Of a stretch of DNA of 64,000 nt, positions 2,817-58,060 are shown one piece after another. Both the position numbers and the translations under genes were made by a program. Each line of letters starts with the position of its first letter. The first letter of the stretch is position 1. The notes beneath the pieces are model-generated. The model made no database searches and was not told the DNA's origin. It saw nothing but the letters and a program-made list of their open reading frames with translations. The stretch covers positions 11,616 to 75,615 of the forward strand of contig JACPNK010000002.1 in the NCBI GenBank assembly GCA_016185525.1, given 5' to 3'. This DNA comes from Candidatus Yanofskybacteria bacterium. GTDB lineage: Bacteria > Patescibacteriota > Minisyncoccia > 2-02-FULL-40-12 > IGHO2-12-FULL-4.

Positions 2817-4286
2817 ATGCAAAAAGAAAAAACAAAAATTACGCCACAGCATTTCTATAAATTTTTCCAGTGTCCGCATTGGATTTGGTACGATCTCTAT
2901 GAAGACCAGCAGAAGAAGAAAGCTACACCGCCTTTGATGCAGATGATTTACGAAGACGGTCTAAAACACGAGCGGGAAGTTATCAAGTCAAAAAAATTTG
3001 AGGAAGTTGATACGGCTATGTTTAAGGATTTGGATGAAGCTTTTTTGGCTACGGCGGAACTGATGAAAAAAGGAAAAAATATTTATCACGGCGTTTTGAT
3101 GGACGAACACTGGGTGGGAATTCCCGATCTTTTGGAGGTTCGGCCGTTAAGCGAATTGGGCGATAAAAAATTAAAGTCTCATTTTGGCGATTATTATTAT
3201 GTGGTTTATGACATTAAAAACAGCAAAGACATCAAAGATGAACATAAATTCCAACTGGTTTTTTACAGTCTGATGTTGGAAAGGATTCAGGGAATTAGGC
3301 CGCGCGAAGCTTATATAATTAACAGCCAAGGCGAAGAAAAGTCTTTTGTTATTGACGAGTTTTTAGACTACTTCCACCTTACTCTGGGAAACATTGAGAA
3401 GATTTTAGAGGGCGAAAAACCGCCGCCATTTTTGAAGAGCGGTTGCAAGCGGACACCTTGGTATAGTCTTTGTTTGTCGGAGACAGAAAGTTGCCGCGAC
3501 GTTTCTCTGATTTATCGTTTAAGCCAGATGGACCAGCGCCAGCTCTATGATATCGGGATTAAAACCATAGATGATTTTGCCCATGCTGATTTGGAGGTTT
3601 TGCGTAGCCAGCTGATTAGCTGGAATTTTGATAAGTTGGTGCGTTTCCATAACCAAGCCCAGTCGTTGGTTAAAAATGAGTCCCTGATCTTAAAAAAGCC
3701 GGTTTTTCCGGAAGTGGAGACGGAAATATATTTTGATATTGAAAGCGACCCCACGCAGGACATTGACTATATGCTTGGCCTTTTAATTAAGCGGAAAAAT
3801 ATTAATGGCGAGCCGGAGTTCAAGTATTTCTTGGCAAATAATAAGTCTGAAGAAGAAAAAATTTGGCGGGAGTTTACCAAGTTTATTGAAGATTTGGATA
3901 ATTTTGTGATTTATCACTATGCCTTTTATGAAAAACAAACCTTTGACCGTCTAGCTTTGAGATATGGCGTTAGCGACAAAGCTTCAGAAAAATTTAAAAA
4001 TAATTCTATTGACTTGCATCGGGTGGTGGTTGACTCCGTCGTCCTGCCTTTGTATTTTTACAGCCTGAAAGATGTGGCCAGATATGTCGGTTTTCAGTGG
4101 CAAGCTGAAGATGCCGGCGGAGCGGAGTCGGTGGTTTGGTACAACCAGTGGAAAGAGACCGGCGATAAAAAGATTCTCCAGAAAATTTTGGATTACAACA
4201 AAGACGATGTTGTGGCGACCATGGTTGTCAAAGAGTGGTTGGAAAAGCAGAAACCTAAAATGCAAAGAGAAATATTGCCGGAATAG
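2817..4286 (+). CDS. RecB-family nuclease, TM0106-type (PD-(D/E)xK N-domain plus RNase-H-like C-domain)
   Basis: GIPDLLEV...YVVYDIKNSK fits a PD-(D/E)xK arrangement. A Cys cluster (CKRTPWYSLC...C) and a C-terminal IYFDIESDP...DYMLGL block resemble an RNase-H-like exonuclease fold. The 489-aa length matches the TM0106 family. Confidence 0.6.
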   Translation: MQKEKTKITPQHFYKFFQCPHWIWYDLYEDQQKKKATPPLMQMIYEDGLKHEREVIKSKKFEEVDTAMFKDLDEAFLATAELMKKGKNIYHGVLMDEHWVGIPDLLEVRPLSELGDKKLKSHFGDYYYVVYDIKNSKDIKDEHKFQLVFYSLMLERIQGIRPREAYIINSQGEEKSFVIDEFLDYFHLTLGNIEKILEGEKPPPFLKSGCKRTPWYSLCLSETESCRDVSLIYRLSQMDQRQLYDIGIKTIDDFAHADLEVLRSQLISWNFDKLVRFHNQAQSLVKNESLILKKPVFPEVETEIYFDIESDPTQDIDYMLGLLIKRKNINGEPEFKYFLANNKSEEEKIWREFTKFIEDLDNFVIYHYAFYEKQTFDRLALRYGVSDKASEKFKNNSIDLHRVVVDSVVLPLYFYSLKDVARYVGFQWQAEDAGGAESVVWYNQWKETGDKKILQKILDYNKDDVVATMVVKEWLEKQKPKMQREILPE

Positions 4287-4352
4287 AGCTAAACGTACCA
4301 AAGAAGCGGTGTTCGCCAAGTTTAGCTGTCCACCTAAATTTTAAAAACAAAT

Positions 4353-4376
4353 TTAAAAAACCCCGAAAGGGGTTCA
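4353..4376. terminator. bidirectional intrinsic terminator
   Basis: Hairpin ccccgaaagggg flanked by A-runs and T-runs between convergent genes. Confidence 0.6.
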
Positions 4377-4382
4377 GTATAA

Positions 4383-4673
4383 CTAGTCTCTGGTAGTGTG
4401 GCGTGGTTTTCTTGCTACGACAGCAGCTAGTTCCACATTAGCAGTCTTCAACTTTTTTTCAGTTTCATTAAGTTTTTCAAGAAGTTTTTGTATAAGTTGG
4501 GCTGCTTTTGACAAGACTCCGATTGTTTCTTGTGCATATTTCTGGAGTTCAGGCTTTGTGTTGTTTGTTATAGCCGACAGACTTTTTTGAGTAAGTGCCA
4601 TAACTTCTTGGAGTGCAACCATTAATTCTTTTTCAAATTCTAATTCTGCGTCTTTTGATGTTTGTAAAGACAT
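4383..4673 (-). CDS. small alpha-helical protein (96 aa), cassette 3 of 3
   Basis: Strong SD (aaggagg) and a predicted all-helical sequence. Palindrome site 1 lies about 95 nt upstream. Confidence 0.5.
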   Translation of the reverse strand: MSLQTSKDAELEFEKELMVALQEVMALTQKSLSAITNNTKPELQKYAQETIGVLSKAAQLIQKLLEKLNETEKKLKTANVELAAVVARKPRHTTRD

Positions 4674-4765
4674 TTTCTCCTCCTTTTTTTAAAGAGCTCC
4701 AAGATAAGGGAGCTACAAGCTAATATACATAATAGGCTGGTTGTGTCAACAGGTGGGTAACCGTC

Positions 4766-4792
4766 AGTCATCAAGGTTGAACCTTGATGACT
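4766..4792. promoter_or_regulatory. 27-bp perfect palindrome agtcatcaaggttgaaccttgatgact (putative operator)
   Basis: Perfect dyad read directly from the sequence. It is related to the dyads at 5237 and 5638. Confidence 0.5.
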
Positions 4793-4803
4793 AGGTCAAT
4801 TTA

Positions 4804-4825
4804 AAAAGCCCTTTTGGGGCTTTTG
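4804..4825 (-). terminator. intrinsic terminator of the 4827..5105 gene
   Basis: aaaagccc-tttt-gggctttt hairpin with a T-run on the - strand. It is near-identical to the terminator at 5276. Confidence 0.6.
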
Positions 4826-4826
4826 T

Positions 4827-5105
4827 TTAGACAAAGGACTGATCGTGTTCGGCCAAGTTTCGTTCAGCCAGAGCCAGCCTTTCTTTGAGTTCGACAGCTT
4901 CTTTTTCCAATTTTTCTTCCCGGTTCAGACTCGCGGACAGAAGCTGGTTATAAACGTCGCAAATTTCCACAAAAGACGAGACAAGTCTTAGAGTGTTAGG
5001 AGAGACAGATGTTTTTCTTTCCATTATTTCAAGAGCACCCTTTAAAAATGCGAGGTTTTTTCGGGCTTTTGCTAATTCCTCCAACGTCTTTTCTCTTTCC
5101 GTCAT
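4827..5105 (-). CDS. small coiled-coil protein, paralog A (about 93 aa)
   Basis: The C-terminus LNREEKLEKEAVELKERLALAERNL is about 70% identical to the 5301..5582 product. The start at 5105 was chosen by homology and because the same aggaaag SD precedes both paralogs. The track ORF extends to 5174. Confidence 0.55.
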   Translation of the reverse strand: MTEREKTLEELAKARKNLAFLKGALEIMERKTSVSPNTLRLVSSFVEICDVYNQLLSASLNREEKLEKEAVELKERLALAERNLAEHDQSFV

Positions 5106-5236
5106 TTTCTTTCCTAAAAAGATTGAGATTTCAAGAACTTGTCGTAGTTTACTATTTTTTATTTTTTGTGTCAAATTCTGAACCTGGACAATTCATTTGA
5201 CTTTATTCCATTTAATACAACCATCAAGGTCCAAAC

Positions 5237-5261
5237 ACCATCAAGGTTAAACCTTGATGGT
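5237..5261. promoter_or_regulatory. 25-bp perfect palindrome accatcaaggttaaaccttgatggt plus an extra half-site at 5221-5232
   Basis: Read directly from the sequence. It lies 60-130 nt upstream of the 4827..5105 gene. Confidence 0.5.
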
Positions 5262-5275
5262 CGTTGACAGATTTT

Positions 5276-5298
5276 AAAAGCCCTTTTAGGGCTTTTGT
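5276..5298 (-). terminator. intrinsic terminator of the 5301..5582 gene
   Basis: aaaagccc-tttta-gggctttt hairpin followed by a T-run. Confidence 0.6.
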
Positions 5299-5300
5299 TT

Positions 5301-5582
5301 TTAACTCCAACTTGGAGAACGACTCAAGTCTTGCTCAGCTTGGGCCAGCTTTTCTTTGAGTTCGGCTACTTCTTTCTCTAACTTTTCTTCCCGGTCGAGG
5401 CTTTCTGACCAGTATGTTGAAAGTAAATCATTTAAGTTTAAGAAAGCGTCGGTAATCGCAAGTATCTCTGGATGATTTCCTAACAAAGCTGGAATAGATA
5501 TTCTGGCATTGAGACTATGAATCTTAGATTTGCTTAATTCTTGTTTTGACTTTTCTCTCGGTGTAAGTTCTTTTTCTTTCAC
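5301..5582 (-). CDS. small coiled-coil protein, paralog B (93 aa, GTG start)
   Basis: LDREEKLEKEVAELKEKLAQAEQDL. An SD gaggaaag lies 5 nt before the GTG. Confidence 0.55.
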   Translation of the reverse strand: MKEKELTPREKSKQELSKSKIHSLNARISIPALLGNHPEILAITDAFLNLNDLLSTYWSESLDREEKLEKEVAELKEKLAQAEQDLSRSPSWS

Positions 5583-5637
5583 TATTCTTTCCTCTTTTCA
5601 ACCAACTAGAGTCATCTTATATTAATAAGTTTGTTTT

Positions 5638-5662
5638 GTCAAGGGGATAGAACACCCTTGAT
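5638..5662. promoter_or_regulatory. dyad gtcaaggggatagaacacccttgat in the divergent promoter region between the small-protein array and secD
   Basis: Shares the TCAAGG...CCTTGA arms with the palindromes at 4766 and 5237. Confidence 0.35.
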
Positions 5663-5691
5663 TTTTTAAAGATTGCTGTTACTGTTTCTTT

Positions 5692-7056
5692 ATGTCTCAA
5701 AGTTACGGGAAGAAATCTCTTATTATATTTCTTATTTCTCTTTTTCTCTTTTTTCTGGTCTATCCGGCCAGTTTTAATTTAAGCGCCGATTTTTTAAACT
5801 CAAAACTCAAGCTTGAAAAAGCCGGTTTCAGTATTCCCCACTTTTTCAATATCCCTTTTCGTCTCGGCTTGGATCTTCTGGGCGGTACCCATTTGGTTTA
5901 CAAGGCCGATGTTTCAAACTTGGTTGCCGGCCAAAGCTCCGCTGATGCAATGGAGGGAGTCAGAGATGTTATTGAAAGAAGGGTCAATATTTTTGGCGTG
6001 GCTGAACCGTTGGTTCAGGTTGAAGGAGAGGACAGACTGGTTGTAGAGTTGGCCGGAATCAAGGACATTTCAGAGGCAATTCGTTTGATAGGCGAGACTC
6101 CATTTTTGCAGTTTAAAGAAGAGCGTCCGGAGGCGGAGACGAACGCCATTTTAGAAGCTCAAAAAAAAGGCGATAAGCTGGATCAGGATCCTTACTTTAT
6201 TGATACTTCTTTAACCGGTAAATATCTTAACGGCGCCAGAGTTGTTTTTGGCGGAGGCGCAAGCCAGCTTTCGGGAGCGGAAGTTTCTTTGGAGCTGAAT
6301 GAAGAAGGCGGAAAGATTTTTAAAGAATTGACTGAAAAGAATTTAAATAAAAGATTGGCAATCTATTTGGACGGTGTGCCAATTAGCGCTCCGACCGTGC
6401 AATCTGTGATTCCTGACGGCAAAGCCGTTATCAGCGGCAATTTTAACATCAGTGAAGCCAAAGAACTAGTGACTCGTTTAAATGCCGGCGCTTTGCCGGT
6501 GCCGGTGTCTCTAATCTCACAGCAAAGCGTGGGCGCTTCTCTGGGCCGGGAATCTTTGGTCAAGAGCTTGAAAGCCGGAATTATAGGATTAATCTTGGTA
6601 GCTGTATTCATGGTTTTGTTTTACCGTTTGCCGGGTTTGGTTTCAGTCGCCGCCTTGCTGGTTTATGCGATTTTTGTTCTGACTTTCTACAAGTTGATAC
6701 CGGTTACTTTAACTTTGGCCGGTATTGCCGGTTTTATATTGTCTTTGGGTATGGCCGTTGACGCTAACGTTTTGATCTTTGCCCGAACGAGAGAGGAGTT
6801 AAGACAAGGAAAGTCTCTGAACTCTTCTTTCAGCGAGGGCTTTAGAAGGGCATGGCTTTCAATCAGGGATAGCCACGTAACTACGCTGATTGGCGCGATT
6901 ATTTTATATTTATTTACTACGTCTATAGTCAAGGGTTTTGCTTTGACTTTGGGTATTGGCGTGGCAATGAGTCTTTTTTCCGCAATCTTTGTGACGAAAT
7001 CTTTTTTGGCTCTTTTAATCGGTCCGTGGCTGGAAGGTAAAAAGTGGTTACTGTAA
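5692..7056 (+). CDS. secD: protein translocase subunit SecD
   Basis: Domain order and a C-terminal 6-TM block typical of SecD. It sits immediately upstream of secF. Confidence 0.85.
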   Translation: MSQSYGKKSLIIFLISLFLFFLVYPASFNLSADFLNSKLKLEKAGFSIPHFFNIPFRLGLDLLGGTHLVYKADVSNLVAGQSSADAMEGVRDVIERRVNIFGVAEPLVQVEGEDRLVVELAGIKDISEAIRLIGETPFLQFKEERPEAETNAILEAQKKGDKLDQDPYFIDTSLTGKYLNGARVVFGGGASQLSGAEVSLELNEEGGKIFKELTEKNLNKRLAIYLDGVPISAPTVQSVIPDGKAVISGNFNISEAKELVTRLNAGALPVPVSLISQQSVGASLGRESLVKSLKAGIIGLILVAVFMVLFYRLPGLVSVAALLVYAIFVLTFYKLIPVTLTLAGIAGFILSLGMAVDANVLIFARTREELRQGKSLNSSFSEGFRRAWLSIRDSHVTTLIGAIILYLFTTSIVKGFALTLGIGVAMSLFSAIFVTKSFLALLIGPWLEGKKWLL

Positions 7057-7062
7057 TTTTTT

Positions 7063-7947
7063 ATGAAACCTATTTATAAAATAATGTTTTTTGTTTCTAT
7101 ATCGCTGGTCGTTTTGGCTGTGGCGGCGACGGTGATTTTCGGTTTAAACTTTAGCGCCGATTTTAAAGGCGGGACTTTAATGGAAGTCCAATTTATCGGA
7201 CCCGAGGCGCCTGGCATTTCGGAGCTCCAGGACTTTGTGAAAAAAAGCCCCGAAACCAGTGACGCGGTGATAAGTCCTTCCGGCGCAGACTCTTTCATTT
7301 TTAGGCTGAAAGAAATTGACGAGGAAGTTCACCAAAAAATTGTAGAAAATCTCAAATTAAAATTCACAAACTTGGAGGAAAAAAGATTTGACTCTGTCGG
7401 CGCGGTGGTGGGCAAGGAACTTAAAAGCAGAAGCATTACGGCGATTGTTTTGGTTTTGATTTTTATCGTTCTTTATATTGCTTTTGTTTTCAGAAAACTT
7501 TACAGCACCCTTTCTTCTTTTACTATGGGCGTGGCTGCAATTGTTGCTCTTCTGCACGATGTATTAATTCCTATGGGGGTGTTCGCTTTGCTGGGTAAGT
7601 ACTATGGTGTTGAGATCACGGCCGTGTTTGTTGCTGCCGTTTTAACCATATTAGGCTATTCGGTTTCCGATACGGTGGTAGTTTTTGACAGAATCAGGGA
7701 GAATGTCATGCGTTTTGGAGGCAAGAGTAATTTTGGCCAGCTTGTTCACGATAGTATTTTGCAGACCCTGACTCGCTCTTTAAATACCACCGTTACGACG
7801 CTTTTGTCGCTTGTGGCCATTTATTTTTTTGGCGGCGAATCAATTAAATATTTTTCCCTGGCTTTGATAATAGGCATATTTTTAGGAGCATATTCTTCAA
7901 TTTTTGTTGCTTCGCCGATAGTGGTTTGGTGGTCAAAAAAAAGCTGA
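7063..7947 (+). CDS. secF: protein translocase subunit SecF
   Basis: 6-TM SecF-like sequence adjacent to secD. Confidence 0.85.
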   Translation: MKPIYKIMFFVSISLVVLAVAATVIFGLNFSADFKGGTLMEVQFIGPEAPGISELQDFVKKSPETSDAVISPSGADSFIFRLKEIDEEVHQKIVENLKLKFTNLEEKRFDSVGAVVGKELKSRSITAIVLVLIFIVLYIAFVFRKLYSTLSSFTMGVAAIVALLHDVLIPMGVFALLGKYYGVEITAVFVAAVLTILGYSVSDTVVVFDRIRENVMRFGGKSNFGQLVHDSILQTLTRSLNTTVTTLLSLVAIYFFGGESIKYFSLALIIGIFLGAYSSIFVASPIVVWWSKKS

Positions 7948-8039
7948 TTTGACAAGTTTTTGTTTGTTTGATAAGTTCTCCCTATTATTTGGGGTTGACT
8001 TATTTTTAATATATTATATTATTGTTTTAATACAAAAAT

Positions 8040-9092
8040 ATGACAAGTTTAGATAAAAACATTAAGAAGGTTGTGGTTAGTCTGGTCAAATCATTGTCTG
8101 AAAGAAATCGGGACATTGTTTTGCGCCGTTTCGGTCTAAAAACTGGCAGTCGCGAGACTCTGGAGTCAATCGGCCAAAGTTATGGCATCACGAGAGAAAG
8201 AGTGAGACAGATTGAGGAATATGCTTTAAAGAATCTGCGCACCGAATCCAGTGGTTCAATGGTTTCAGCAGTTAAGCCATATTTTGACTTTGTTAAAGAA
8301 TTGCTTGTCAATCACGGCGGATTCCTTTCGGAAAGCGATTTGTATAAAAAATTTAGCGGTCAAAACAAGGACAACGTGGCGAACTTGTCTTTTGCTTTTT
8401 TGCTTGCTTTAAATTCTGACTTTGCCAGGAACTACGAAAACGACAACTTCAATACCTTCTGGTCTCTAAATGACAGCTCATTAGACTCGGCGGCTAAACT
8501 CGTCGGATCGGTGGAGGCCGCTCTTAAGGAAAAAAATTCTTTGCTGACTAAAGACGAATTATATTCTTTATATAAAACTAAGACTAAAAGCAAACTAATT
8601 TCTATGGACGCGTTTCTAACGGCTGCGGCAGTATCTAAAAACATAGATAAAAATATTTTTGGTCAGTACGGTTTGGTCAGCTGGTCGGAAGTAAAGCCAA
8701 GGGGAGTTAGAGACCGTGCTTTTATGGTTTTGAAAAGAGAGGCGAAGCCTAAACATTTTAGGGAAATTACCAGTCTTATCAACACTGCCCAATTCGCTGT
8801 TAAAAAAGCCAACGTTCAGACTGTTCACAACGAACTCATCAAAGACAGTCGTTTTGTTTTGGTTGGCAGGGGCATTTATGGTTTGTCTGAATGGGGTTAT
8901 AAGTCTGGGACCGTTAAAGATGTTTTGGTTGATATCTTGAAAGAGTCAAAGAAGCCTTTGGATAAAAATACTTTAGTTGCCAAAGTTCTCTCTTCCCGTT
9001 ATGTCAAAGAAAATACCGTGGTGCTTAATCTCCAGGACTCAAAGATTTTTGCCAAAAAGCAAGATGGTACATACTCGCTTAAAGAAGCTTAA
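8040..9092 (+). CDS. sigma-70 region-4-like HTH protein with a C-terminal domain of unknown function
   Basis: The N-terminus LSERNRDIVLRRFGL...ETLESIGQSYGITRERVRQIEEYALKNLR matches the sigma70 region 4 consensus. The rest is unrecognised. Confidence 0.5.
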   Translation: MTSLDKNIKKVVVSLVKSLSERNRDIVLRRFGLKTGSRETLESIGQSYGITRERVRQIEEYALKNLRTESSGSMVSAVKPYFDFVKELLVNHGGFLSESDLYKKFSGQNKDNVANLSFAFLLALNSDFARNYENDNFNTFWSLNDSSLDSAAKLVGSVEAALKEKNSLLTKDELYSLYKTKTKSKLISMDAFLTAAAVSKNIDKNIFGQYGLVSWSEVKPRGVRDRAFMVLKREAKPKHFREITSLINTAQFAVKKANVQTVHNELIKDSRFVLVGRGIYGLSEWGYKSGTVKDVLVDILKESKKPLDKNTLVAKVLSSRYVKENTVVLNLQDSKIFAKKQDGTYSLKEA

Positions 9093-9103
9093 TAAATAAA
9101 CAA

Positions 9104-9136
9104 AAACCCGTTCTTTAAAAGAACGGGTTTTTGTTT
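9104..9136 (+). terminator. intrinsic terminator
   Basis: aaacccgttcttt-aaaa-gaacgggttt hairpin plus a T-run after the 8040..9092 gene. Confidence 0.65.
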
Positions 9137-9187
9137 ATAATAAATCTGTTATAATTGACTTAACTTAACATATCAATAATCTGAACC

Positions 9188-10444
9188 ATGTTGGAAGATC
9201 TTATTTTTGGCCTAGACCTAATAATAAACTACTGGTGGGTTTATATGCCTGTTCTGCTTTTGCTTGGTTTTTATTATGCCTGGTTGGAATACATACAAAC
9301 CGAATACTTTAACTCTTTGAATTGGACACTGTTGCATATTAAACCGCCACCGGACGTTGACCGAAGTCCTAAAGCCGCCGAGCAGATTTTTGCTGGTCTC
9401 CATGGGATATTTGTCAAGCCTGTGAGTTGGAAGGAAAAACTTTTCAAAGGCAAAATACCCGATTGGTTTTCTATAGAGATAGTCGGTCAAAACGGGGTTA
9501 CTAATTTTTACATCAGAACGCTGACAGATTATAAAAACGTAGTTGAGTCCAACGTCTTTGCCCAATATCCGGATGCCGAAATTAATGAAGTTGCAGACTA
9601 TATTAAAGAATGGCCGAGGAAGCTTCCAAATGAGGAATATGATCTTTTTGGGTCGGAGTTAATTTTAAGCAAAGAAGATGCTTATCCGATACAGACATAT
9701 CCGGCTTTTGAAGAAAAAATGGCTGGCTTGGAGCAGATCAAGCGCTTGGATCCGCTGTCTTCTCTTACCGAGGTTTTCAGCACCTTTCGTCTTGGAGAAT
9801 ATTTTGTGATTCAACTGCTGATCCGGCCGGTTGGCGACGACTGGGTAAAAAAGGCCCAGGAACCGCTGGACAAATTGCTTGGCAAAGAGTCAAAAAAAGA
9901 AGAAAACTTGATAGAGTCAATGTTTAATCAGATCGACAAGGTTTTTTTGCCCGGTGTTGAGGAAAAAAAGGAAGATAAAAAAGATAAAAAACTTTCTGCT
10001 CCGGAAGAGGAAATGGCCAAAGCTATCGGCAGAAAAACTTCAAAGATAGGTTTTGAGTCTGGCATCAGGCTGGTGTATGTATCAAAAAAGGAAGTTTTTC
10101 ACCGTTACCACTTTGCGGCGGTTATGGGGGGTTTTAAGCAACTCGCTACGGCCAACTTGAACAGCTTTAAAGTCAACAAAAAAACCCTGACTTACTCAAA
10201 AGGCATTTTTGCCGGCCCGTTTCCTTCGGATAAAGGTTTTCTTGCTGAACAAAAGACATTTGAAAAGAAAGTTAATCTTTTTGGATATTTAAAAAACAGA
10301 GTGTTTACTCAAAAAGTTTTTGTTCTTAACGTTGAAGAACTGGCTACGATTTTTCACTTGCCCGGCATAGAAGTGCAGGCGCCGATGCTGCCCAGAGTGG
10401 AGGCAAAAAAGGGCCAGCCCCCGGCAGGTTTGGGTATGGAATAG
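9188..10444 (+). CDS. membrane-anchored protein (1 N-terminal TM), putative partner of the downstream VirD4-like ATPase
   Basis: The N-terminal hydrophobic helix is followed by a charged soluble domain. It is separated from the ATPase gene by only 18 nt. Confidence 0.45.
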   Translation: MLEDLIFGLDLIINYWWVYMPVLLLLGFYYAWLEYIQTEYFNSLNWTLLHIKPPPDVDRSPKAAEQIFAGLHGIFVKPVSWKEKLFKGKIPDWFSIEIVGQNGVTNFYIRTLTDYKNVVESNVFAQYPDAEINEVADYIKEWPRKLPNEEYDLFGSELILSKEDAYPIQTYPAFEEKMAGLEQIKRLDPLSSLTEVFSTFRLGEYFVIQLLIRPVGDDWVKKAQEPLDKLLGKESKKEENLIESMFNQIDKVFLPGVEEKKEDKKDKKLSAPEEEMAKAIGRKTSKIGFESGIRLVYVSKKEVFHRYHFAAVMGGFKQLATANLNSFKVNKKTLTYSKGIFAGPFPSDKGFLAEQKTFEKKVNLFGYLKNRVFTQKVFVLNVEELATIFHLPGIEVQAPMLPRVEAKKGQPPAGLGME

Positions 10445-10462
10445 TTAACGGAAATAATTTTT

Positions 10463-12070
10463 ATGGACAACGACAAAGTATTATTTGGAGAAATTAACTT
10501 CCGCAATCAGCGGTCTCGTTTTGGCATTAAGCAGGGCGATCGTGATCGTCATATGTATGTCATTGGAAAGACCGGTATGGGTAAGACGGAAATTTTGAAA
10601 AATATGGTTATTCAGGATATTCAGGCTGGCCGGGGAGTGGCTTTTATTGACCCCCACGGTGATACCGCTGATGATTTGCCTAATTTTGTGCCTAAAGAAA
10701 GGATAAAAGATGTCATCATTTTTGACCCTTCTGATCTAGACTTTCCCATCGCTTTTAACGTTATGGACCAGGTGGACGACCGTTTCCGCCACTTGGTCGC
10801 TTCCGGTTTGCTTGGTGTTTTTAAGAAAGTTTTTGGCATTGAGGTGTTTTCAGCTCGCATGGAATACATTCTCAACAATACCATCTTGGCTTTGCTGGAG
10901 TTTCCCGGAGCGACTATTTTGGGCATTAATCGCATGCTTGCCGAAAAACAATTTCGTGAAGCTGTGGTGGAAAAAATTACCGATCCCTTGGTAAAAGCTT
11001 TCTGGACGCAGGAATTTGCCAAGTACACTGATCGTTTGGCTTCGGAGGCGACGGCTTCAGTGCAAAACAAAGTTGGCCAGTTCACTTCTTCCAGTCTCAT
11101 CCGCAATATTTTAGGACAAGTTCACTCTACGCTTGATGTACGCAAGGTTATGGACGAAAAGAAAATTTTAATTATGAATCTTTCAAGAGGCAAGATTGGC
11201 GAGGATGTGAGTCGGTTGTTGGGTGCCATGATGATTACCAAAATTCAACTGGCCGCCATGTCACGGGCTGATATTCCGGAAAAAGAAAGAGCCTCATTCT
11301 ATTTATATGTTGACGAATTCCAGCATTTTGCCACCGAATCTTTTGCTAACATTTTGTCTGAAGCCAGAAAATTCGCGCTAAATTTGGTCATCGCCCACCA
11401 GTACATAGCGCAGATGGAGGAAGAGGTGCAAAAAGCGGTTTTTGGCAACGTTGGTACGATTGTTACTTTTCGCATTGGCGCTGAAGACGCGGAAATTTTG
11501 GAAAAAGAATTTGCTCCTGACTTTACGGAAAACGACCTGGTGAATTTAGCCAAATGGCAGATTTATCTGAAGTTAATGATAGATGGTGTGGCTTCCAGAG
11601 CTTTTTCCGCCAATACTCTGCCTCCTTGGCCAAGACCGGACATTAGCTATGCCGAAGAGATACTTGCTTTTTCCAGAGAAACTTATGCTCATCCGAAAGA
11701 GGAAGTTGAGAAGCAAATTGGCGAATGGTCGGCCAAGTTAATTCAGCCGGAGATTAGAAAAGAACCACCCCAAAGACCATACAGTCAGTTTCAGCAGCCA
11801 TTTCAACCGAGAGAAAAGGTTTATGGTTCCGGCGTTTATCCACGGCTTCCAACACAACAAAAACCGGCTTCTTTGCAGGAAGCCATAAGAAGCGGTCCGG
11901 TTGATTTCAGGGGCAGAAAAATTATGCCACCGGCTCCTGTTTTAGAAAAAAAACCTACCACTTCTTCAGAAAAAGCTACTGTTGATTTGCAAAGTTTGAG
12001 GCAGACCCTTGGCCAGATAGTCAATAAAAATACTGATTTAAAAGATAAAGATGAATCTCAATCAAAATGA
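10463..12070 (+). CDS. soluble VirD4/TraG/TraD-family-like ATPase (type IV secretion system DNA-binding domain-containing protein)
   Basis: Walker A VIGKTGMGKTE and Walker B LYVDEFQHF. The block ARKFALNLVIAHQYIAQM...VFGNVGTIVTFRIGAEDAEILEKEF resembles the TraG-D_C region. There are no TM helices. Confidence 0.6.
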   Translation: MDNDKVLFGEINFRNQRSRFGIKQGDRDRHMYVIGKTGMGKTEILKNMVIQDIQAGRGVAFIDPHGDTADDLPNFVPKERIKDVIIFDPSDLDFPIAFNVMDQVDDRFRHLVASGLLGVFKKVFGIEVFSARMEYILNNTILALLEFPGATILGINRMLAEKQFREAVVEKITDPLVKAFWTQEFAKYTDRLASEATASVQNKVGQFTSSSLIRNILGQVHSTLDVRKVMDEKKILIMNLSRGKIGEDVSRLLGAMMITKIQLAAMSRADIPEKERASFYLYVDEFQHFATESFANILSEARKFALNLVIAHQYIAQMEEEVQKAVFGNVGTIVTFRIGAEDAEILEKEFAPDFTENDLVNLAKWQIYLKLMIDGVASRAFSANTLPPWPRPDISYAEEILAFSRETYAHPKEEVEKQIGEWSAKLIQPEIRKEPPQRPYSQFQQPFQPREKVYGSGVYPRLPTQQKPASLQEAIRSGPVDFRGRKIMPPAPVLEKKPTTSSEKATVDLQSLRQTLGQIVNKNTDLKDKDESQSK

Positions 12071-13337
12071 CAAGTGGATTCCTTGGCCTGGAATTGGCCA
12101 AGTTAATAAAAAACCCATTGCCTCTATAGTTGATAACCACTATTTCCGACGCTTAAGCGACAAGCGTCAGCTCTCTCTTGCTTATTTAGTTTTTCCTGGC
12201 GCAACTCATGACCGTAGACAGCATTCTCTGGGCGCCTACTACAGGACGTCTCAATTTACTGCTAAAATGGTCAAGCTAGGTGTTTTGACCAGCCAAGAAG
12301 AGGTCAACTTAAATCTTTATGCTCTTTTGCATGATATTGGACATGGCCCATTGTCCCATGTTATAGAAGTTTTTACTGAACGTAACCATCATACCAACGG
12401 ACTGAAGATTTTGGACAAGATGGTTGATGACATTGAAGCCTGCGGCGGTGATCTGGAATTGATAAAAAAATATATGTCCAGACAGGATCCCAAAGGCAAA
12501 ATTGTTGATGACAAAAATTTTGGCATGGAAAAACTTGACTACCTGATCAGGGATCAGGAATCTACACAGTTTGGACCCAATATCCGCTATTGCGTAGAAA
12601 GTGTTTTCAATCACCTTGATTTTAGAGACGGCCAGTTGGCGGTTGACCTCAAAGCCCTGGATTCGGCCATGGAAATCCAAAGGGCTTATATTTATTTTTA
12701 TCGCAATGTGCATTTGGAGAAAAGCAACTATCTTATCCAGCGCTTTATGCAGAAACTCATCTATCAGCTGTTGCATACGTCTCGCAATCAAGGCGGTATA
12801 GGCGAAGACGAGCTGTGGGAGATGGTAGACGGCGACTTGATTCATGCTTTGAAAAAATGCCAGAACGAATCCGTGAGAAACGGCATAAAAATTTTTGATA
12901 GCGGTGTCAAGCATTTTCCCAAAACGGCCATATCAATACGTCTTAAGAGTTATGGTTGGCTTGAAAGACGTGCCGGCAAATCGATTGATGTTTACGAGGC
13001 TGACAAAGAATTTTTTGAAAGATTTTATGAAAAATCCAGCCCAAGAGATCTGGAAATTATTGAGTCGCAAATCGCTAAGGCGCTTGGTTTAGAAAGCTGG
13101 CAGGTGGCGGTTAGTCACATTGTTGAGCGTGATCGCTTTATCCCACAGGATATTCTGTTTTTTGACGGTCCGAAAACCTACTCTTTAAAGGAAAAAGATC
13201 CGGCCTATTTTAACTTACTTGACAGAGAAGTGGAGAAGTATCTCTGTGTTAGAATTTGTGCTGTGCCGGAACACAGGCAGAAAGTTACAACGGAGAAAGA
13301 AAGACTGCTTAATATGCTTTTGAACTATGTCAAATAA
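12051..13337 (+). CDS. HD-domain dNTP triphosphohydrolase-like protein (dGTPase/SAMHD1-like, COG1078-type)
   Basis: FRRLSDKRQLSLAYLVFPGATHDRRQHSLGAYY and LLHDIGHGPLSH, with a DYLIRD motif downstream. Confidence 0.65.
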   Translation: MNLNQNDKWIPWPGIGQVNKKPIASIVDNHYFRRLSDKRQLSLAYLVFPGATHDRRQHSLGAYYRTSQFTAKMVKLGVLTSQEEVNLNLYALLHDIGHGPLSHVIEVFTERNHHTNGLKILDKMVDDIEACGGDLELIKKYMSRQDPKGKIVDDKNFGMEKLDYLIRDQESTQFGPNIRYCVESVFNHLDFRDGQLAVDLKALDSAMEIQRAYIYFYRNVHLEKSNYLIQRFMQKLIYQLLHTSRNQGGIGEDELWEMVDGDLIHALKKCQNESVRNGIKIFDSGVKHFPKTAISIRLKSYGWLERRAGKSIDVYEADKEFFERFYEKSSPRDLEIIESQIAKALGLESWQVAVSHIVERDRFIPQDILFFDGPKTYSLKEKDPAYFNLLDREVEKYLCVRICAVPEHRQKVTTEKERLLNMLLNYVK

Positions 13338-14718: not shown

Positions 14719-14780
14719 TAAACTAACAATCCGCCCGTAGCCCTGCCTGCCGGCAGGCAGGTCAGTTGGCGAAGATTAGT

Positions 14781-15017
14781 ATGTTTTTTGTGTACGTTCT
14801 TAAAAGTGAAAAAGATGGCAATCTTTACATTGGTATGACCAACGACTTGAAACGTAGATTGAATGAGCATAATTGTGGCAGAAACTTGTCTACAAAATAC
14901 AGAAGACCATTTAGGTTAATATACAGTGAAAAATTAAACGACAGGGTCAAGGCTAGATATAGAGAAAAGTTTTTAAAGTCTGGCACTGGAAGAGAGTGGA
15001 TTAAAAATAACTTATAA
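14781..15017 (+). CDS. GIY-YIG nuclease domain protein (YhbQ-like, 78 aa)
   Basis: FVYVLKSEKDGNLYIGMTNDLKRRLNEHN is a GIY-YIG motif. The ATG at 14781 is preferred over the TTG at 14766 in the track. Confidence 0.7.
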   Translation: MFFVYVLKSEKDGNLYIGMTNDLKRRLNEHNCGRNLSTKYRRPFRLIYSEKLNDRVKARYREKFLKSGTGREWIKNNL

Positions 15018-15030
15018 CAATTATAACCAT

Positions 15031-15105
15031 CCGCCCGTAGCTCAGCTGGTAGAGCAACTCCCTTTTAAGGAGATGGTCGTTGGTTCGACTCCAACCGGGC
15101 GGACA
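15031..15105 (+). tRNA. tRNA-Lys (anticodon TTT), CCA not encoded
   Basis: Cloverleaf folded by hand. Acceptor ccgcccg/cgggcgg, D-stem gctc/gagc, anticodon loop cTTTTaa, T-arm gttgg-ttcgact-ccaac, discriminator A. Confidence 0.8.
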
Positions 15106-42362: not shown

Positions 42363-44408
42363 ATGCGAAGTAAGATTATAATCGCACTGCTTCTTGTTGG
42401 GGTTTCTTTTTTGGTAATGTTAAACTTGCCGGAAATATTAGAACAAATAAGCTTTAATTTTAATCTAGGTAAAGCGGAAGATTTAGAAATTGTTGGTACT
42501 GTGCAAGACTTAGGAAAATGGGTTGATGCAAGGCAGCAGGGATCTTATTACGCTAACTATAACTCTTTAATTAGAGACGATTCTGGAAGGATGCACTTAA
42601 CTTATTGTTCTTCAGGAGAGCTATTTAATCCTTTATATGCACCTGATTGGAGACCGACAACGACGTATGCAACAGACAAAGTGCGATATCAATATTCTGA
42701 CGATAACGGCAAAACATGGTCGGGTGCGCAGATAATCATTCAACCGTTCAGGGAAAATAATAAAGATAACCTGTATCAGGGGGCGTGCACTAGCAGTTTA
42801 ATTTATTATAAAGGATTTTATTATTTATATTTTGAATCTTCCAGTCCTCCTTCTGGGATTCTTGCTGTTCATGTAGCGCGCTCTTCAAATCCTGCCGGTC
42901 CTTACGAAGTCCTAACTTATGATGGTTGGAAACAGATTCCAACTAATTCAATTTGGAAACCTGTGCTTAACCCGGCAATACGAAGTGTACCCGGGGCAGA
43001 GGAATGGCTAAGAACCCACGAGAACAATGGCGTTTGGAGCAACTATTGGGGTGCTGGGATTCCAAGGGTAACACAGAAAGATGGAAAACTATATCTTTTT
43101 TTTGTGGATACAACCAATTGGATTATCTGGGCAGATTCCAGTGGAATACATGAATACGGCAGAGCTCCAAAGGACATGATTCCTTATACTCTGGTTGCAG
43201 TCAGCGAGGACCCAACTCGTTTTGAAAATATTTATGATAATAGATTAGTCAATGCAAGCGGAAATGAAATCTGGAACACGATAAATCCAAAATATTTCCC
43301 TGATGAAAATAAGTTTTATAATTTCTATTTGAAAAATGTAGATGGGCAGAATAAAATTGCATACAGAACTTCTGTCAATGGAATTGTTTGGAGCGCTGAA
43401 ATTGCCAAAACAGACGCAATTTCCGGGAACCTTAACCCAAATGAAGGAGATCCATCGCAAGCAGATAATATAATCCAATTATTCCACCACTTGGTTTTGC
43501 TTTCAGACAAAGAAGGAAAAGGAAAACTTTCAGACTTATATATGACATACCAAAAAGACCATCTTTTTGATAATGGTCCTGTTGGTTGGCAGGATACCCC
43601 TGACTATAAATGGTACTATGGGGGTGTGGATATTTATGGACTTAAAATGAATTTACAAGTTAGCTCAACTTCAATTTTAATTGTTACGACCACTTTGTCT
43701 CCTCCGACTACCACAACAATCACTACAACTGTTGCGCCAACAACTATCACCACGGCCGTTCCTACAACTGCAACAATTCTGTCTACGACCACAACTACGA
43801 CTATTGTTCCAACCACTACTACAACTTTGATTTCTACAACCATCACAACACAAACGCCGTCAACTACCATAACGACCAAGTCTCCGACCACAACTATCAC
43901 GACAATCTTACCGGTATCTCCCACTCTTATTCGCGCCTCTGGCGACACAAAAGTCTATAAAATTATTTCCAACAAAAAACTCTGGATACCAACGGCCGAG
44001 TCTTTTGTTTCTCAAGGATTAAAATGGCAGGATATTCAAAATTCAAGCAAAATGTTAGTTACAAGCTATGTTCGACTTAAACTCGCCAGAGCAGTGGGAG
44101 ACGTTAAGAGATATTATTTGACGGAATCTGGATTGAAACGTTATATTCCCAATGATGAAGTGTTTTTGTCTTATGGTAATAGGAATGAGGATATTGTTGA
44201 AATAACACAGCAAGAGCTTAACTCGTATCCAAACAACGACTTAATAAAAACAGAAGGAGATGAAAAAGTCTACAAACTGGAAAATGGACAAAAAAGATGG
44301 ATAAAAACAGCCGGAGCTTTTAATAGACTTGGATTTGACTGGTCTAAAATTGCCCCGGTTAACCAAACAGAAATTAACAGTTACCTAACCGGAAGTGTTA
44401 TAGAATGA
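42363..44408 (+). CDS. large secreted BNR/Asp-box beta-propeller-like protein with Thr-rich linker and three C-terminal ~45-aa repeats
   Basis: Signal peptide, YQYSDDNGKTWSG (SxDxGxTW) and a ~70-aa T/I/P-rich linker. C-terminal repeats are SGDTKVYKI...LWIPT, VGDVKRYYL...RYIPN and EGDEKVYKL...RWIKT. Confidence 0.5.
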   Translation: MRSKIIIALLLVGVSFLVMLNLPEILEQISFNFNLGKAEDLEIVGTVQDLGKWVDARQQGSYYANYNSLIRDDSGRMHLTYCSSGELFNPLYAPDWRPTTTYATDKVRYQYSDDNGKTWSGAQIIIQPFRENNKDNLYQGACTSSLIYYKGFYYLYFESSSPPSGILAVHVARSSNPAGPYEVLTYDGWKQIPTNSIWKPVLNPAIRSVPGAEEWLRTHENNGVWSNYWGAGIPRVTQKDGKLYLFFVDTTNWIIWADSSGIHEYGRAPKDMIPYTLVAVSEDPTRFENIYDNRLVNASGNEIWNTINPKYFPDENKFYNFYLKNVDGQNKIAYRTSVNGIVWSAEIAKTDAISGNLNPNEGDPSQADNIIQLFHHLVLLSDKEGKGKLSDLYMTYQKDHLFDNGPVGWQDTPDYKWYYGGVDIYGLKMNLQVSSTSILIVTTTLSPPTTTTITTTVAPTTITTAVPTTATILSTTTTTTIVPTTTTTLISTTITTQTPSTTITTKSPTTTITTILPVSPTLIRASGDTKVYKIISNKKLWIPTAESFVSQGLKWQDIQNSSKMLVTSYVRLKLARAVGDVKRYYLTESGLKRYIPNDEVFLSYGNRNEDIVEITQQELNSYPNNDLIKTEGDEKVYKLENGQKRWIKTAGAFNRLGFDWSKIAPVNQTEINSYLTGSVIE

Positions 44409-55171: not shown

Positions 55172-56413
55172 ATGCGTTTATCACAATTATTCACCCGCAC
55201 CGAAAAAGAGGCGCCAAAAGATGAGGCAAGCGTAAATGCTCAACTTTTGGAAAGAGCCGGTTTTGTTTACAAAAATAATTCTGGAATTTACACCTATCTG
55301 CCTTTGGGTTGGCGGGTGATAAATAAAATCACGGCGATTATAAGAGAAGAAATGAACGCGATCGGCGGACAGGAGATGTTTATGCCGGCTTTAGTAGACA
55401 AAAGGTATATGGACTCCACTGGCCGCTGGGATGTGGAGGTGGCTTTTGAAGCCAAGGGCAAAAAAGAAAACGAAGCAAGGTTTACTCTCGGCTGGACTCA
55501 CGAGGAGGTTATCACAGAAATTGCCTCTAAGTATATCAGCTCATACAAAGACTTGCCGTTCTCTTCTTATCAGATACAAACTAAATTCCGCAACGAGCCC
55601 CGAGCGAAATCCGGCCTTTTACGGGGCAGAGAATTTTTAATGAAAGACTTGTATAGTTTTCATGCCTCGGAAGAAGATTTTTTGAGATATTACGAAAAAG
55701 TCCGCGGCGCTTATCACAAAATTTTTGAAAGATGCGGCTTGAAATCTTTCTACACTTTAGCGGCAGGCGGAGACTTTACGGCAAGCAATACTCATGAGTT
55801 TCAGGTTTTGGCGCCGGTGGGTGAGGATACTATTTTTATCTGCTCTAAATGCGAGTATGCCGAAAATAAAGAGATTTCTTCTCTAGCTAACGGTGGTTTG
55901 TGCTTAAAATGCGGCGGCAAAGTCAGGGAAGAAAAGTCCGTTGAAGTCGGCAACATTTTTCCTTTAGGCACTAAATACACCGAAGCTTTAAATTTACAAT
56001 TTACGGATGAACGGGGGAATAAAGAATTTGTGGTCATGGGTTCATATGGCATTGGTCTGGGCAGACTGATGGGAACTGTTGCCGAAATTTATCATGACAA
56101 AAACGGATTAATCTGGCCGGAGTCAATTGCGCCTTATAAATTTATTTTAATAACTCTAGACCACACCAAAGAAGAAGGGGATAAGTTATATCAAAAACTT
56201 TTGGAACAAGGGGCTGAAGTTTTATACGACGACAGAGAAGACAAAACCGCTGGCGAGAAATTTGCCGATGCCGATTTGCTGGGCATACCGATCAGGCTTG
56301 TAATTAGCCCCAAAACGTTAAAAGAAAAAAGCGTAGAGATGAAGATGAGAGGAAAAAAGGTGACAGAATTAACCAAACTCAAAGAAGTTGAAGAAAAACT
56401 GGACTTAAGCTAG
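55172..56413 (+). CDS. proS: proline--tRNA ligase (short archaeal-type)
   Basis: Class II motifs, a Zn-binding C-terminal CSKCEYAEN...CLKCGG cluster and an anticodon-binding domain. Confidence 0.8.
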   Translation: MRLSQLFTRTEKEAPKDEASVNAQLLERAGFVYKNNSGIYTYLPLGWRVINKITAIIREEMNAIGGQEMFMPALVDKRYMDSTGRWDVEVAFEAKGKKENEARFTLGWTHEEVITEIASKYISSYKDLPFSSYQIQTKFRNEPRAKSGLLRGREFLMKDLYSFHASEEDFLRYYEKVRGAYHKIFERCGLKSFYTLAAGGDFTASNTHEFQVLAPVGEDTIFICSKCEYAENKEISSLANGGLCLKCGGKVREEKSVEVGNIFPLGTKYTEALNLQFTDERGNKEFVVMGSYGIGLGRLMGTVAEIYHDKNGLIWPESIAPYKFILITLDHTKEEGDKLYQKLLEQGAEVLYDDREDKTAGEKFADADLLGIPIRLVISPKTLKEKSVEMKMRGKKVTELTKLKEVEEKLDLS

Positions 56414-57642
56414 TTACCAATTGGGCTATTGACACCATGGCATCAAGTTTGCTATACTGATAAAGCTCACCCAAAGAAGGGTGAGGGGCCAAAGGAGGGG
56501 CCCTGAAAACAAAAAACCCTCTCAACATAACCAACCACTCTTGTTGAAAAACAACGGAGGTGAGATTATGACTTGAAACCAAGCGCTTAGGCGCACGGTC
56601 TAAAAACCGCGGAACTTATAGTACCCAGGCGGGGAGCTGGTAAAATAAGGCTAAAAACCAGCTCCCACCCATTAAATAGTCCCGCTCTTTTGTTCTTTAT
56701 ATATTTTATTTAAAGAGCGGGGCTGCTTAATGGGTAATCCAAGGTTTACCCTTGGAAACATATCCTTGGAAACGCTTGACAGGGGTAGGGCGGTTGTGAT
56801 ATACTTAGAGTATAAGGTTGAAAACTAGTAAAAAGCCTTGCAAAATACTACTTTCTTTATGTAGAAATATGTAAAGGAAGTCGGATTTTGCGAGACTGAA
56901 GAATGTGGGAGAGCCACAAGGCAAGGGCCAACCAGCCTAATAAATCTCCCAAAAAAACTTAAGTCTCGCTCGATTTTCTGTCTCCAGCACAGTACTAGGG
57001 AGACAGAAACTGTGATGCGGCACAGTACCAAGACGGAGAGTAGCCGCTTCTACTCTCCACAGTTATAGCGAGGACCTGCTGAAGCTCGAAGTAGAACTTC
57101 CCTTGTGGGTGGTTCCGGGCGGGTTGAAGTTTCAAAACCCCAGCAGGTTCCTCGTTACTTTTAAAAAATAACGGCTCTGAAAAATAGCTTAAAAGATCTC
57201 ACTTATTAAAATTTTCTAGACAATCTGTCTAAGACTGAATTACTGATTTTTGAGGCTATTTTGCGGAGCTGGCGTCCCGCTCCCGATGTTGCGCGCCTTC
57301 TTGGCAAGCAGTACCAGACGCAGTACCAGACCAGAAGGACATGAATAGAAGTACAACATCGGGGGTAACGAAGAAGCACCAAACCCCAGGGATGCCCGCT
57401 CCGCTCGCTCTTTATATTTATTTTTTATTGCTACTAGCTATAGCTATTTTCTATTGCTAGTCCCTACACCGAATGGTGTAGGGCTTCGCAAGATATTTCT
57501 ATCGGAAATCAGAAATGGTGGAAGATGGAAGTATCTTGCGGAGGAGCAACAACCATCAGCAAGGGGTGCGGGGGAGCCATTAAGGAGGCGACCCCTCATA
57601 CCCTTGCCTCTTCCGCAGTTTAGTAAAGCTGTTTGTTTCACC

Positions 57643-57706
57643 GAGTGGGCTGGCTTGTAAGTTGTATTGCAAGCAAAGATGCTGTGCCAGCCCACTCACC
57701 TTTTTT
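57643..57706 (+). terminator. strong intrinsic terminator (12-bp GC-rich stem gagtgggctggc/gccagcccactc plus TTTTTT)
   Basis: Read directly from the sequence. Confidence 0.65.
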
Positions 57707-57982
57707 AAAATAAAGTCTTTCAGAAATAGTTCACAAAAATTTGCGAGTTATTTCTGTGAGACTGGTAATCGTCTAAAGGATAGGGCACCTCTTTCTGACT
57801 GAGCGGTCTTTGGGGGAAAAACCTGTTCGATTCAGGTAGCCAGTCTCACACTTCGCAAAATGTTTCTAAGTTATTGGAAATATTTTGCGGAGTGGGACGG
57901 CGACGTACTACAGGCGAAGGCGCATCACCCAAGGCCCTGTCGTAAGCAAACGCCTCCCCGCTCCGCAGTTAGTATTATTACG

Positions 57983-58018
57983 GCCCTATTGGAAACCCCG
58001 ATAGGGCTTTTTTCTTTT
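57983..58018 (+). terminator. intrinsic terminator (gccctat-tggaaaccccg-atagggc plus TTTTTT)
   Basis: Read directly from the sequence. Confidence 0.65.
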
Positions 58019-58060
58019 GCATAATTTCGGGATTTTGTTTAGAGTAACAAAAAAGCCCAA

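Follow-up and report, generated by a model that had tools for sequence, protein, structure and literature searches.

What can a VirD4-type ATPase be for when no other gene of a type IV secretion system (T4SS) lies near it? We took up this question for a 64,000-nt stretch of a Candidatus Yanofskybacteria genome (contig JACPNK010000002.1, positions 11,616 to 75,615, forward strand), here called the window. The original prediction, made from the letters alone, had described a soluble VirD4/TraG-like ATPase paired with a protein that has a single transmembrane (TM) helix, the two genes lying between those of a helix-turn-helix (HTH) protein and an HD-type dNTPase. When the coordinates of the open reading frames (ORFs) were re-derived, the four genes, the 18-nt spacing within the pair, the 20-nt overlap of the ATPase and HD genes, and the Walker A and B motifs were all found as claimed:

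8040-9092, plus strand: sigma-r4/HARE-HTH protein, 350 aa
9188-10444, plus strand: membrane subunit, 418 aa
10463-12070, plus strand: VirD4-type ATPase, 535 aa
12051-13337, plus strand: HD phosphohydrolase, 428 aa

Our best explanation, in which we have moderate confidence, is that a long-form type IV coupling protein (T4CP) is encoded here in two halves, by the genes at 9188-10444 and 10463-12070, likely serving an MPF-FATA-type T4SS encoded elsewhere.

The ATPase and its membrane partner

By sequence and fold, the 535-aa protein is a VirD4/TrwB-type and not a VirB4-type ATPase; its alignment with TrwB spans the nucleotide-binding domain (NBD) and the all-alpha domain, while TrwK aligns only at the P-loop. 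In hhalign, a profile of 20 orthologues matched TrwB of R388 (95.8%, E 7e-9, query residues 25-320 against TrwB 120-393), with an alignment that begins past the two TM helices of TrwB and continues through its all-alpha domain; against TrwK/VirB4, just 20 P-loop residues aligned. Identity to canonical T4CPs was ca. 16%. Among the Pfam models, TrwB_AAD_bind scored 33.1 bits (cut-off, 20.5) and DUF87 was marginal at 26.3 bits (cut-off, 23.2), while HerA_C stayed under its cut-off and FtsK_SpoIIIE gave no match, which separates the protein from HerA and FtsK. The TraG-D_C-like block noted earlier was recovered at 20.9 bits, slightly under the cut-off of 22, and the TraD and CD1115 VirD4-like models of NCBIfam were both sub-threshold. 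The Pfam models P-loop_TraG, AAA_10, and CagE_TrbE_VirB had no match at E <= 0.1 to the ATPase or the 418-aa protein, although they do match TrwK, pSK41 TrsE, and phage G gp155.

The AlphaFold2 model of the ATPase (mean predicted local distance difference test score, pLDDT, of 67) was good at residues 40-310. Its best Foldseek matches in the PDB were DotL (1.1e-8), Cagbeta (1.8e-7), HerA 4d2i (4.4e-7), and TrwB (ca. 1e-6), with the VirB4 C-terminal domain (CTD) at 1.7e-3; apart from 4d2i, HerA structures ranked under the T4CPs. Most, although not all, T4CPs have an N-terminal TM domain in the same polypeptide. We found no hydrophobic segment anywhere in the 535 aa, in a scan that shows the two of TrwB (residues 7-32 and 49-75). 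These results support the earlier description of a VirD4/T4CP-like ATPase devoid of a membrane domain of its own, and the protein does not fall in a non-VirD4 clade. Its main features are as follows:

10565-10588, plus strand: Walker A GKTGMGKT, residues 35-42 (G35, T37, G38, M39, G40, and K41 invariant in 20 orthologues)
10778-11155, plus strand: all-alpha insertion, residues ca. 106-231 (eight helices in the model, pLDDT 80-95)
11300-11317, plus strand: Walker B YLYVDE, residues 280-285 (D284 and E285 invariant in 20 orthologues)
11744-12067, plus strand: low-complexity Pro/Gln-rich C-terminal tail (pLDDT <50, predicted disordered)

The all-alpha insertion sits between strands 84-87 and 235-239 of the model and is the predicted counterpart of the T4CP all-alpha domain. 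An NBD with an inserted all-alpha domain and Walker A and B motifs is the arrangement also found in VirD4/TrwB, DotL, and Cagbeta. The difference from these canonical T4CPs is that the ATPase polypeptide has no N-terminal TM domain, the membrane helix being supplied by the separate 418-aa subunit. By analogy with T4CPs, the ATPase would be expected to form hexamers, hydrolyze NTP, and recruit a substrate.

When 80 orthologues were compared, the C-terminal tail proved to contain two short conserved motifs, 'SLQEAIRSGPVDFRGRKI' and 'VDLQSLRQTL'. Many orthologues carry in this tail a zinc ribbon (CxxCG...FxPDGxRPVYCxxC), and many, partly different ones end in 'G(I/V)LKPGE.(I/V)KF' (C termini recorded at L004, L006, L012-L015, L023, L028, L030, L035, L037, L038, L043, L049, L051, L053, L055, and L071); both are missing from the window ATPase. 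Such tails seem modular, with a possible role in binding nucleic acid or partners. We also considered whether the C-terminal motif tracks the presence of the HTH gene and saw no pattern, the tails being modular and variable. More than 8000 homologues of the ATPase are present in the database, with identities of 54% or higher throughout the top 120.

The original prediction took the 418-aa protein for a split-off membrane anchor. One N-terminal TM helix and a partnership with the ATPase (below) are borne out, but the protein is more than a membrane anchor:

9227-9307, plus strand: single predicted TM helix, residues ca. 14-40, 'NYWWVYMPVLLLLGFYYAWLEY' (by hydropathy; a long helix at 16-43 in the model)
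10319-10441, plus strand: conserved C-terminal tail 'EELATIFHLPG...PRVEAKKGQPPAGL' (aligned family, 46 sequences)

The best 19-residue Kyte-Doolittle window was 1.57 (family median, 1.69), and the Wimley-White octanol sum over residues 15-33 was -16.9 kcal/mol. Beyond this helix, the protein consists of a predicted cytoplasmic alpha/beta domain of ca. 370 aa, in a confident AlphaFold2 model (pLDDT, 82.6; predicted template-modeling score, 0.78). In a Foldseek search of the PDB, all 13 matches at E <= 1e-3 were TrwK/VirB4 chains from the R388 cryo-EM structures, the best at 2.5e-6 with a probability of 1.0, yet with TM-scores of 0.32 to 0.38. CTD-only VirB4 crystal structures and other P-loop ATPases were absent from the list, and for this reason we match the fold to the N-terminal domain (NTD) of VirB4; the next matches were unrelated oxidases. 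A structural likeness of moderate strength thus suggests a VirB4-NTD-like fold. The BFVD matches were phage G gp156 (7.9e-20), phage G gp155 (9.4e-8), and two other Bacillus phage proteins; gp155 is a VirB4-type ATPase by Pfam and would give the proposed fold independent support. The 418-aa profile had no match among PDB sequences, and local Pfam and NCBIfam searches returned nothing useful. Homologues carry the precomputed accession PF26449, and we found no literature on DUF8128/PF26449.

A domain of this kind is missing from canonical T4CPs. On the other hand, the pair combined resembles TrwK, gp155, and the TcpF VirB4s in its two-domain layout and total length (ca. 800-950 aa), and the number of residues ahead of Walker A (418 + 35 = 453) is close to the ca. 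455 of TrwK in the P-loop register of hhalign. It departs from VirB4 in having a T4CP-type ATPase domain and, at its N terminus, no sequence similarity to TrwK or TrsD by hhalign; pSK41 TrsD showed no similarity to the 418-aa/ATPase family.

The last ca. 40 residues of the 418-aa protein are disordered in the model (pLDDT <50 at residues 395-418) and nearly invariant in sequence, with E384, A386, T387, H390, P392, P399, R403, K407, K408, G409, P412, and L415 as the invariant or near-invariant columns. This tail aligns with residues 347-392 of a T4CP-like protein from Embleya, immediately ahead of its ATPase domain. It appears to correspond to the linker that leads into the ATPase in fused homologues, and judging from this alignment, it may act as a docking peptide. 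At 50% identity, the family falls into 3282 clusters; among the best 150, every one is of split length.

Fused relatives in phages and plasmids

The two-gene pair can be read as a split long-form coupling protein because its halves are fused colinearly in phage G and in Bacillus plasmids. Within PHROG 5156 (824 positions), the 418-aa protein matched positions 30-361 (E 4e-20) and the ATPase positions 414-819 (E 4e-56). The phage G protein gp156 (825 aa), whose upstream neighbor is the VirB4-type gp155, aligned colinearly with both halves, at 97.8% in hhalign for the 418-aa profile (gp156 residues 32-315) and 99.9% for the ATPase profile. Similarly, in an 885-aa protein of a 27.6-kb Bacillus licheniformis plasmid, residues 47-302 aligned with the 418-aa profile (97.5%) and residues 319-731 with the ATPase profile (99.8%). 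Adding phage G to the profile search gave a top listing of Patescibacteria only, so the distant fused forms were not mapped in this way.

The genes around the fused forms point to conjugation. The 885-aa gene heads a Gram-positive conjugation operon that continues with a replication-relaxation family protein and conjugal-transfer proteins and also includes a TcpF-type VirB4 ATPase (NCBIfam E 2.7e-251), a large VirB6-like conjugal-transfer membrane protein, a lytic transglycosylase/C40 peptidase, and a single-stranded DNA-binding protein. An identical layout was found in a 64.7-kb Bacillus subtilis plasmid, and the fused forms of Bacillus plasmids (885-913 aa; e.g., NZ_CP035190 and NZ_OX419568) are annotated as 'DUF87 domain-containing protein'. 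In an Embleya plasmid, the order is PrgI/VirB3, ATPase, an 812-aa T4CP-like protein, replication-relaxation protein, and NlpC/P60; in the N-terminal region of the 812-aa protein, only the linker motif aligns with the 418-aa profile. From its operon position, the fused form would occupy the coupling-protein slot of monoderm conjugative elements.

Compared with phage G gp156 and the Bacillus proteins of 885-913 aa, then, both halves of the window pair are homologous and colinear, with the linker motif in common, at identities of ca. 22-28%. The differences are that the window has two genes, that its N-terminal half gained or kept a clear TM helix, that the pair is chromosomal, vertically inherited, and near-universal in its lineage, and that no relaxase-like gene, VirB4/TcpF, or other transfer gene adjoins it. 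A T4CP that lacks TM helices and is tethered by a separately encoded membrane protein has a precedent in pIP501, where a small membrane protein, TraI, has been proposed as the anchor of TraJ, a soluble T4CP (PMC12857230, a 2025 review). However, TraI has two predicted TM domains and no large cytoplasmic domain, it has not been described as a piece split from a T4CP, and both genes lie inside the tra operon, unlike the window pair.

ATPase homologues were present in 366 records of the plasmid collection, 290 of them typed as non-mobilizable by MOB-suite. Taken at face value, this typing would favor a machine that works without a T4SS, a reading weighed below. It is unreliable for plasmids with the fused form, however, because their operons have relaxase-like genes foreign to MOB-suite. 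The three 'non-mobilizable' Bacillus and Embleya plasmids that we inspected (L088, L090, and L091) have what look like complete conjugation operons, which include a 'replication-relaxation family' gene, and fused-form plasmids may be mistyped systematically.

Two further relatives deserve mention in their own right. A 1.08-Mb 'plasmid' of Priestia megaterium, unannotated in PLSDB (L086; NZ_CP045273, 684240-704615), has a fused homologue with a 534-aa ORF at locus positions 7744-9348, whose ATPase half is recovered in three tblastn pieces over 2.4 kb, a fragmentation that suggests an insertion or frameshifts. The 22-kb record of Microcystis phage Mwe-JY31 (L002, 7533-9395) contains a 620-aa ATPase homologue (hhalign 99.7%) with an N-terminal region of ca. 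150 aa unlike the 418-aa family and a ParA-like gene close by.

Conservation and genomic surroundings of the module

We scanned species-representative genomes for orthologues and obtained at least 596 positive genomes, in which the ATPase is 54-88% identical; the best 80 loci were analyzed for gene neighborhoods by our own ORF calling, phmmer/jackhmmer, and BLAST clustering. The 418-aa gene lies directly 5' of the ATPase gene in 56 of the 80 (median gap, 13.5 bp), so that the pair, whose co-conservation had been proposed as a check, is widely kept together. In 48 of these 56 pair-bearing loci (48/80 overall), the sigma-r4/HARE-HTH gene is directly 5' of the 418-aa gene (median gap, 40 bp), tightly co-located with it as a conserved third member of the module. 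The ATPase tree follows candidate-phylum labels, with synteny kept across several candidate phyla, and the 24 loci without an adjacent partner form three clades nested among partner-bearing ones; both observations argue for vertical inheritance with few unlinking events. That the partnerless ATPases might be an old paralogue or relaxed at the N terminus was ruled out by this nesting and by an N-terminal segment equally conserved as in the others.

In the largest partnerless clade, a membrane protein of ca. 390-465 aa, DUF4015-type glycoside hydrolase-like by eye, precedes the ATPase instead. It is encoded directly 5' in L032, L033, L045, L047, L050, L068, and L081, one small ORF off in L040, L069, and L077, and farther away in L061.

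For the first gene of the module, the original prediction had recognized the sigma-r4 domain, which stands (Pfam Sigma70_r4 at residues 17-67, E 6e-14, with the HTH at ca. 8-74), but had missed both the HARE-HTH winged helix at residues ca. 225-285 (E 2e-10) and the conserved membership of the gene in the module. The central region of the 350-aa protein had no family match. A 24-orthologue profile searched against the PDB returned sigma region 4 only (E 1e-18). In other proteins, sigma region 4 and HARE-HTH are RNA-polymerase-associated or DNA-binding modules, and on that ground the protein could be a DNA-recognition adaptor for the ATPase, as relaxosome accessory proteins are for the T4CPs of plasmids, or else a plain transcription factor that regulates the operon. 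As a cryptic relaxase or accessory factor it was rejected, since hhalign showed no similarity to two replication-relaxation proteins, TrwA, or the phage G neighbors.

Upstream of the module in the window are two genes of the Sec system, and SecD-SecF precede it in 33 of the 80 loci. They are a frequent upstream neighbor, by synteny only and not as a demonstrated functional link:

5692-7056, plus strand: secD
7063-7947, plus strand: secF

The downstream side is variable, with housekeeping neighbors such as Pgk, RecJ-like, RNase H, MurJ, MnmA, alanyl-tRNA synthetase, and glycosyltransferases. The window itself looks like ordinary housekeeping chromosome. Pfam scans of 40 further ORFs of the window found SecDF, Ddl, MraY, FtsW, UvrB, RuvA, Mur ligase, Lon, MurG, MreBC, PBP2, tRNA synthetases, and similar proteins, and none of them was a VirB4, relaxase, pilin, or any other T4SS component, as had been noted before. 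GC content is even along the whole window, and an Rfam scan returned one tRNA only.

The HD gene was the basis for a proposed role in anti-phage defense, in which a HerA/VirD4-like ATPase, a membrane protein, and an HD dNTPase would deplete nucleotides or sense invading DNA. The protein is indeed an HD hydrolase, SAMHD1/EF1143-like in its PDB sequence matches (2q14, E 3e-21; 2o6i, 8.5e-11; SAMHD1, ca. 1e-10), its gene overlaps that of the ATPase, and PADLOC gave matches to mad8 (E 7e-13), HerA models (2e-9 to 1e-2), and, for the HD protein, dGTPase (4.6e-4). These PADLOC matches are weak and confined to the generic P-loop core, and structure and profile comparisons favor T4CPs over HerA. Moreover, an HD gene follows the ATPase in just 3 of the 80 loci (L003, L005, and L082), the other downstream genes being housekeeping, and an M48 peptidase is nearby in none; both are incidental neighbors outside the conserved module. 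Unlike patchy defense islands, the family occurs near-universally, in what resembles single copy, and its tree tracks taxonomy; the even GC also speaks against an island. We therefore set the link to the HD dNTPase aside and consider defense very improbable.

A second alternative is that the pair was left behind by an integrated conjugative element or prophage that has decayed, and has no present function. Outside Patescibacteria, plasmids and phages carry the nearest relatives, and the window has no other transfer genes, as a remnant would predict. Yet neither ORF is disrupted, the catalytic motifs are invariant, no integrase, repeats, or composition shift was found in the window, and the conservation described above, in identity and in synteny, effectively refutes this reading.

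Some other parts of the window are worth recording. A 489-aa protein at 2817-4286 fuses a Cas4-like nuclease domain (DUF83) to an RNase_H_2 (DnaQ-like exonuclease) domain. Ahead of secD, a 1.4-kb gap (4286-5692) holds no bigger gene than three ORFs of 93-115 aa arranged in tandem on the minus strand (4383-4673, 4827-5174, and 5301-5582); at least the last two share a similar '...SL(N/D)REEKLE' motif and may be paralogues. An 83-aa ORF in the stretch 14766-15104, GIY-YIG-like by eye, stops 13 nt 5' of tRNA-Lys(ttt). Between a major facilitator superfamily transporter fragment and a PolX-type polymerase, a 681-aa ORF (42363-44408) had no Pfam match at E <= 1e-4. Finally, 1.65 kb at 56413-58061 are without an ORF of >83 aa and have a GC content of 0.45, above the surroundings. 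This stretch lies directly 5' of a gene for a 23S-rRNA-intervening-sequence protein (58061-58447), and a permissive Rfam scan gave sub-threshold hairpin-type matches only, one of which, a palindromic hairpin around 56661-56739, was hit on both strands.

15031-15104: tRNA-Lys(ttt) (Rfam/tRNA scan)

Action with or without a secretion system

Orphan T4CP homologues of Patescibacteria have been known since 2025. The sections of Quinonero-Coronel et al. (PMC12102498) on which we draw report 5,713 VirD4-type homologues in 2,918 of 3,035 genomes (96%), just 148 of them near virB4, against VirB4 in 2,417 of the 3,035 genomes (ca. 80%) and almost no relaxases. The window ATPase and these homologues are very probably the same genes. 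A membrane or VirB4-NTD-like partner, a relation of split to fused forms, an HTH partner, and SecDF synteny are not described in those sections, and the literature that we examined likewise gave no account of the split architecture, of its fused relatives, or of partners of the VirB4-NTD-like and HTH kinds.

We propose that the invariant tail of the 418-aa subunit docks the ATPase, and that the complex would form a membrane-tethered hexameric NTPase, as T4CPs do, able to recruit and drive a macromolecular substrate. The HTH protein might contribute DNA recognition or regulate the operon. The likeliest partner would be the chromosomal MPF-FATA-type T4SS that ca. 80% of Patescibacteria carry elsewhere. 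We regard cooperation with a T4SS as the likeliest role because every informative context of a fused relative is a T4SS operon and because the one Patescibacteria T4SS cluster annotated by structure, that of Candidatus Southlakia epibionticum, is without recognizable coupling or relaxase proteins (PMC10633639, Wang et al. 2023).

Several observations weigh against this split coupling protein serving a T4SS. No T4SS or relaxase gene was found within the 64-kb window or within 7 kb in the 80 related loci, which also separates the pair from canonical T4CPs. The ATPase model is poor at residues 314-386 and in the tail. The likeness of the 418-aa protein to the VirB4 NTD is structural only, at the low TM-scores given above, and its profile gave no hhalign signal with TrwK, TrwM/VirB3, pSK41 TrsD, or TrsE. 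The T4CP role of the fused plasmid forms is deduced from operon position, and in the 24 loci without an adjacent membrane partner, the ATPase may work alone or with a partner encoded elsewhere. In addition, T4CP homologues are distributed more widely than VirB4, and in Ca. Southlakia the T4SS is essential while the T4CP homologue of that species, a possible orthologue of the window ATPase, is dispensable; the authors state that exaptation cannot be dismissed (PMC12102498, in the same sections). The suggestion in the original prediction that the module may serve something other than conjugation echoes this published remark.

The main rival accepts the split T4CP ancestry but lets the machine act without a T4SS, as a stand-alone membrane-tethered nucleic-acid translocase. 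The HTH protein would then select the DNA, for instance that taken up or exported where the cell meets its host, or that of the chromosome as it is handled at division, in the manner of FtsK/SpoIIIE or TraB. A replacement of FtsK is considered only as part of this rival, since papers on TM7x mention FtsK. Its frequency in genomes (96% versus 80% for VirB4) and the published transposon sequencing, in which the T4CP is dispensable while the T4SS is essential, fit such a translocase (PMC12102498, sections cited above). So do its constantly chromosomal, vertically inherited position in housekeeping neighborhoods beside SecDF and cell-envelope genes, the lack of a relaxase in the window and the 80 loci, the tight association with a DNA-binding protein that has two HTH domains, and the zinc ribbon in many orthologue tails. 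Against it, all informative contexts of fused relatives are T4SS or conjugation operons or lie beside a VirB4-type ATPase, the module has no evident channel protein and just one TM helix per subunit, and the HTH protein may be a transcription factor, as both of its domains are RNA-polymerase-associated elsewhere. On balance, we judge this stand-alone action to be rather unlikely.

A bolder proposal would make the three genes a Patescibacteria-wide, T4SS-independent membrane pump for DNA or nucleoprotein, guided by sequence or modification, and derived from a conjugative coupling protein, which would serve to handle the chromosome or to exchange nucleic acids with the host. It would represent an evolutionary intermediate with a VirB4 NTD on a VirD4-type motor. 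We offer this as a speculation that is doubtful at present.

Much of bacterial diversity belongs to the host-dependent Patescibacteria. In the single species tested, the T4SS is essential, but its cluster has no recognizable coupling protein, and a near-universal orphan VirD4-type gene had been noted in Patescibacteria, in the sections of the 2025 study used here, without being explained. Under the split coupling protein that we favor, this orphan is recast as half of a two-subunit long-form coupling protein, paired with a VirB4-NTD-like membrane subunit and usually accompanied by a two-HTH protein. With three defined proteins, one can ask if DNA is moved by the T4SS, if the module acts on its own, and what it recognizes. 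The fused relatives flag a widespread, unannotated type of T4CP in Bacillus and actinomycete plasmids that typing tools call non-mobilizable. With a predicted VirB4-like N-terminal domain joined to a VirD4-like motor, the family also bears on the relationship between VirD4 and VirB4.

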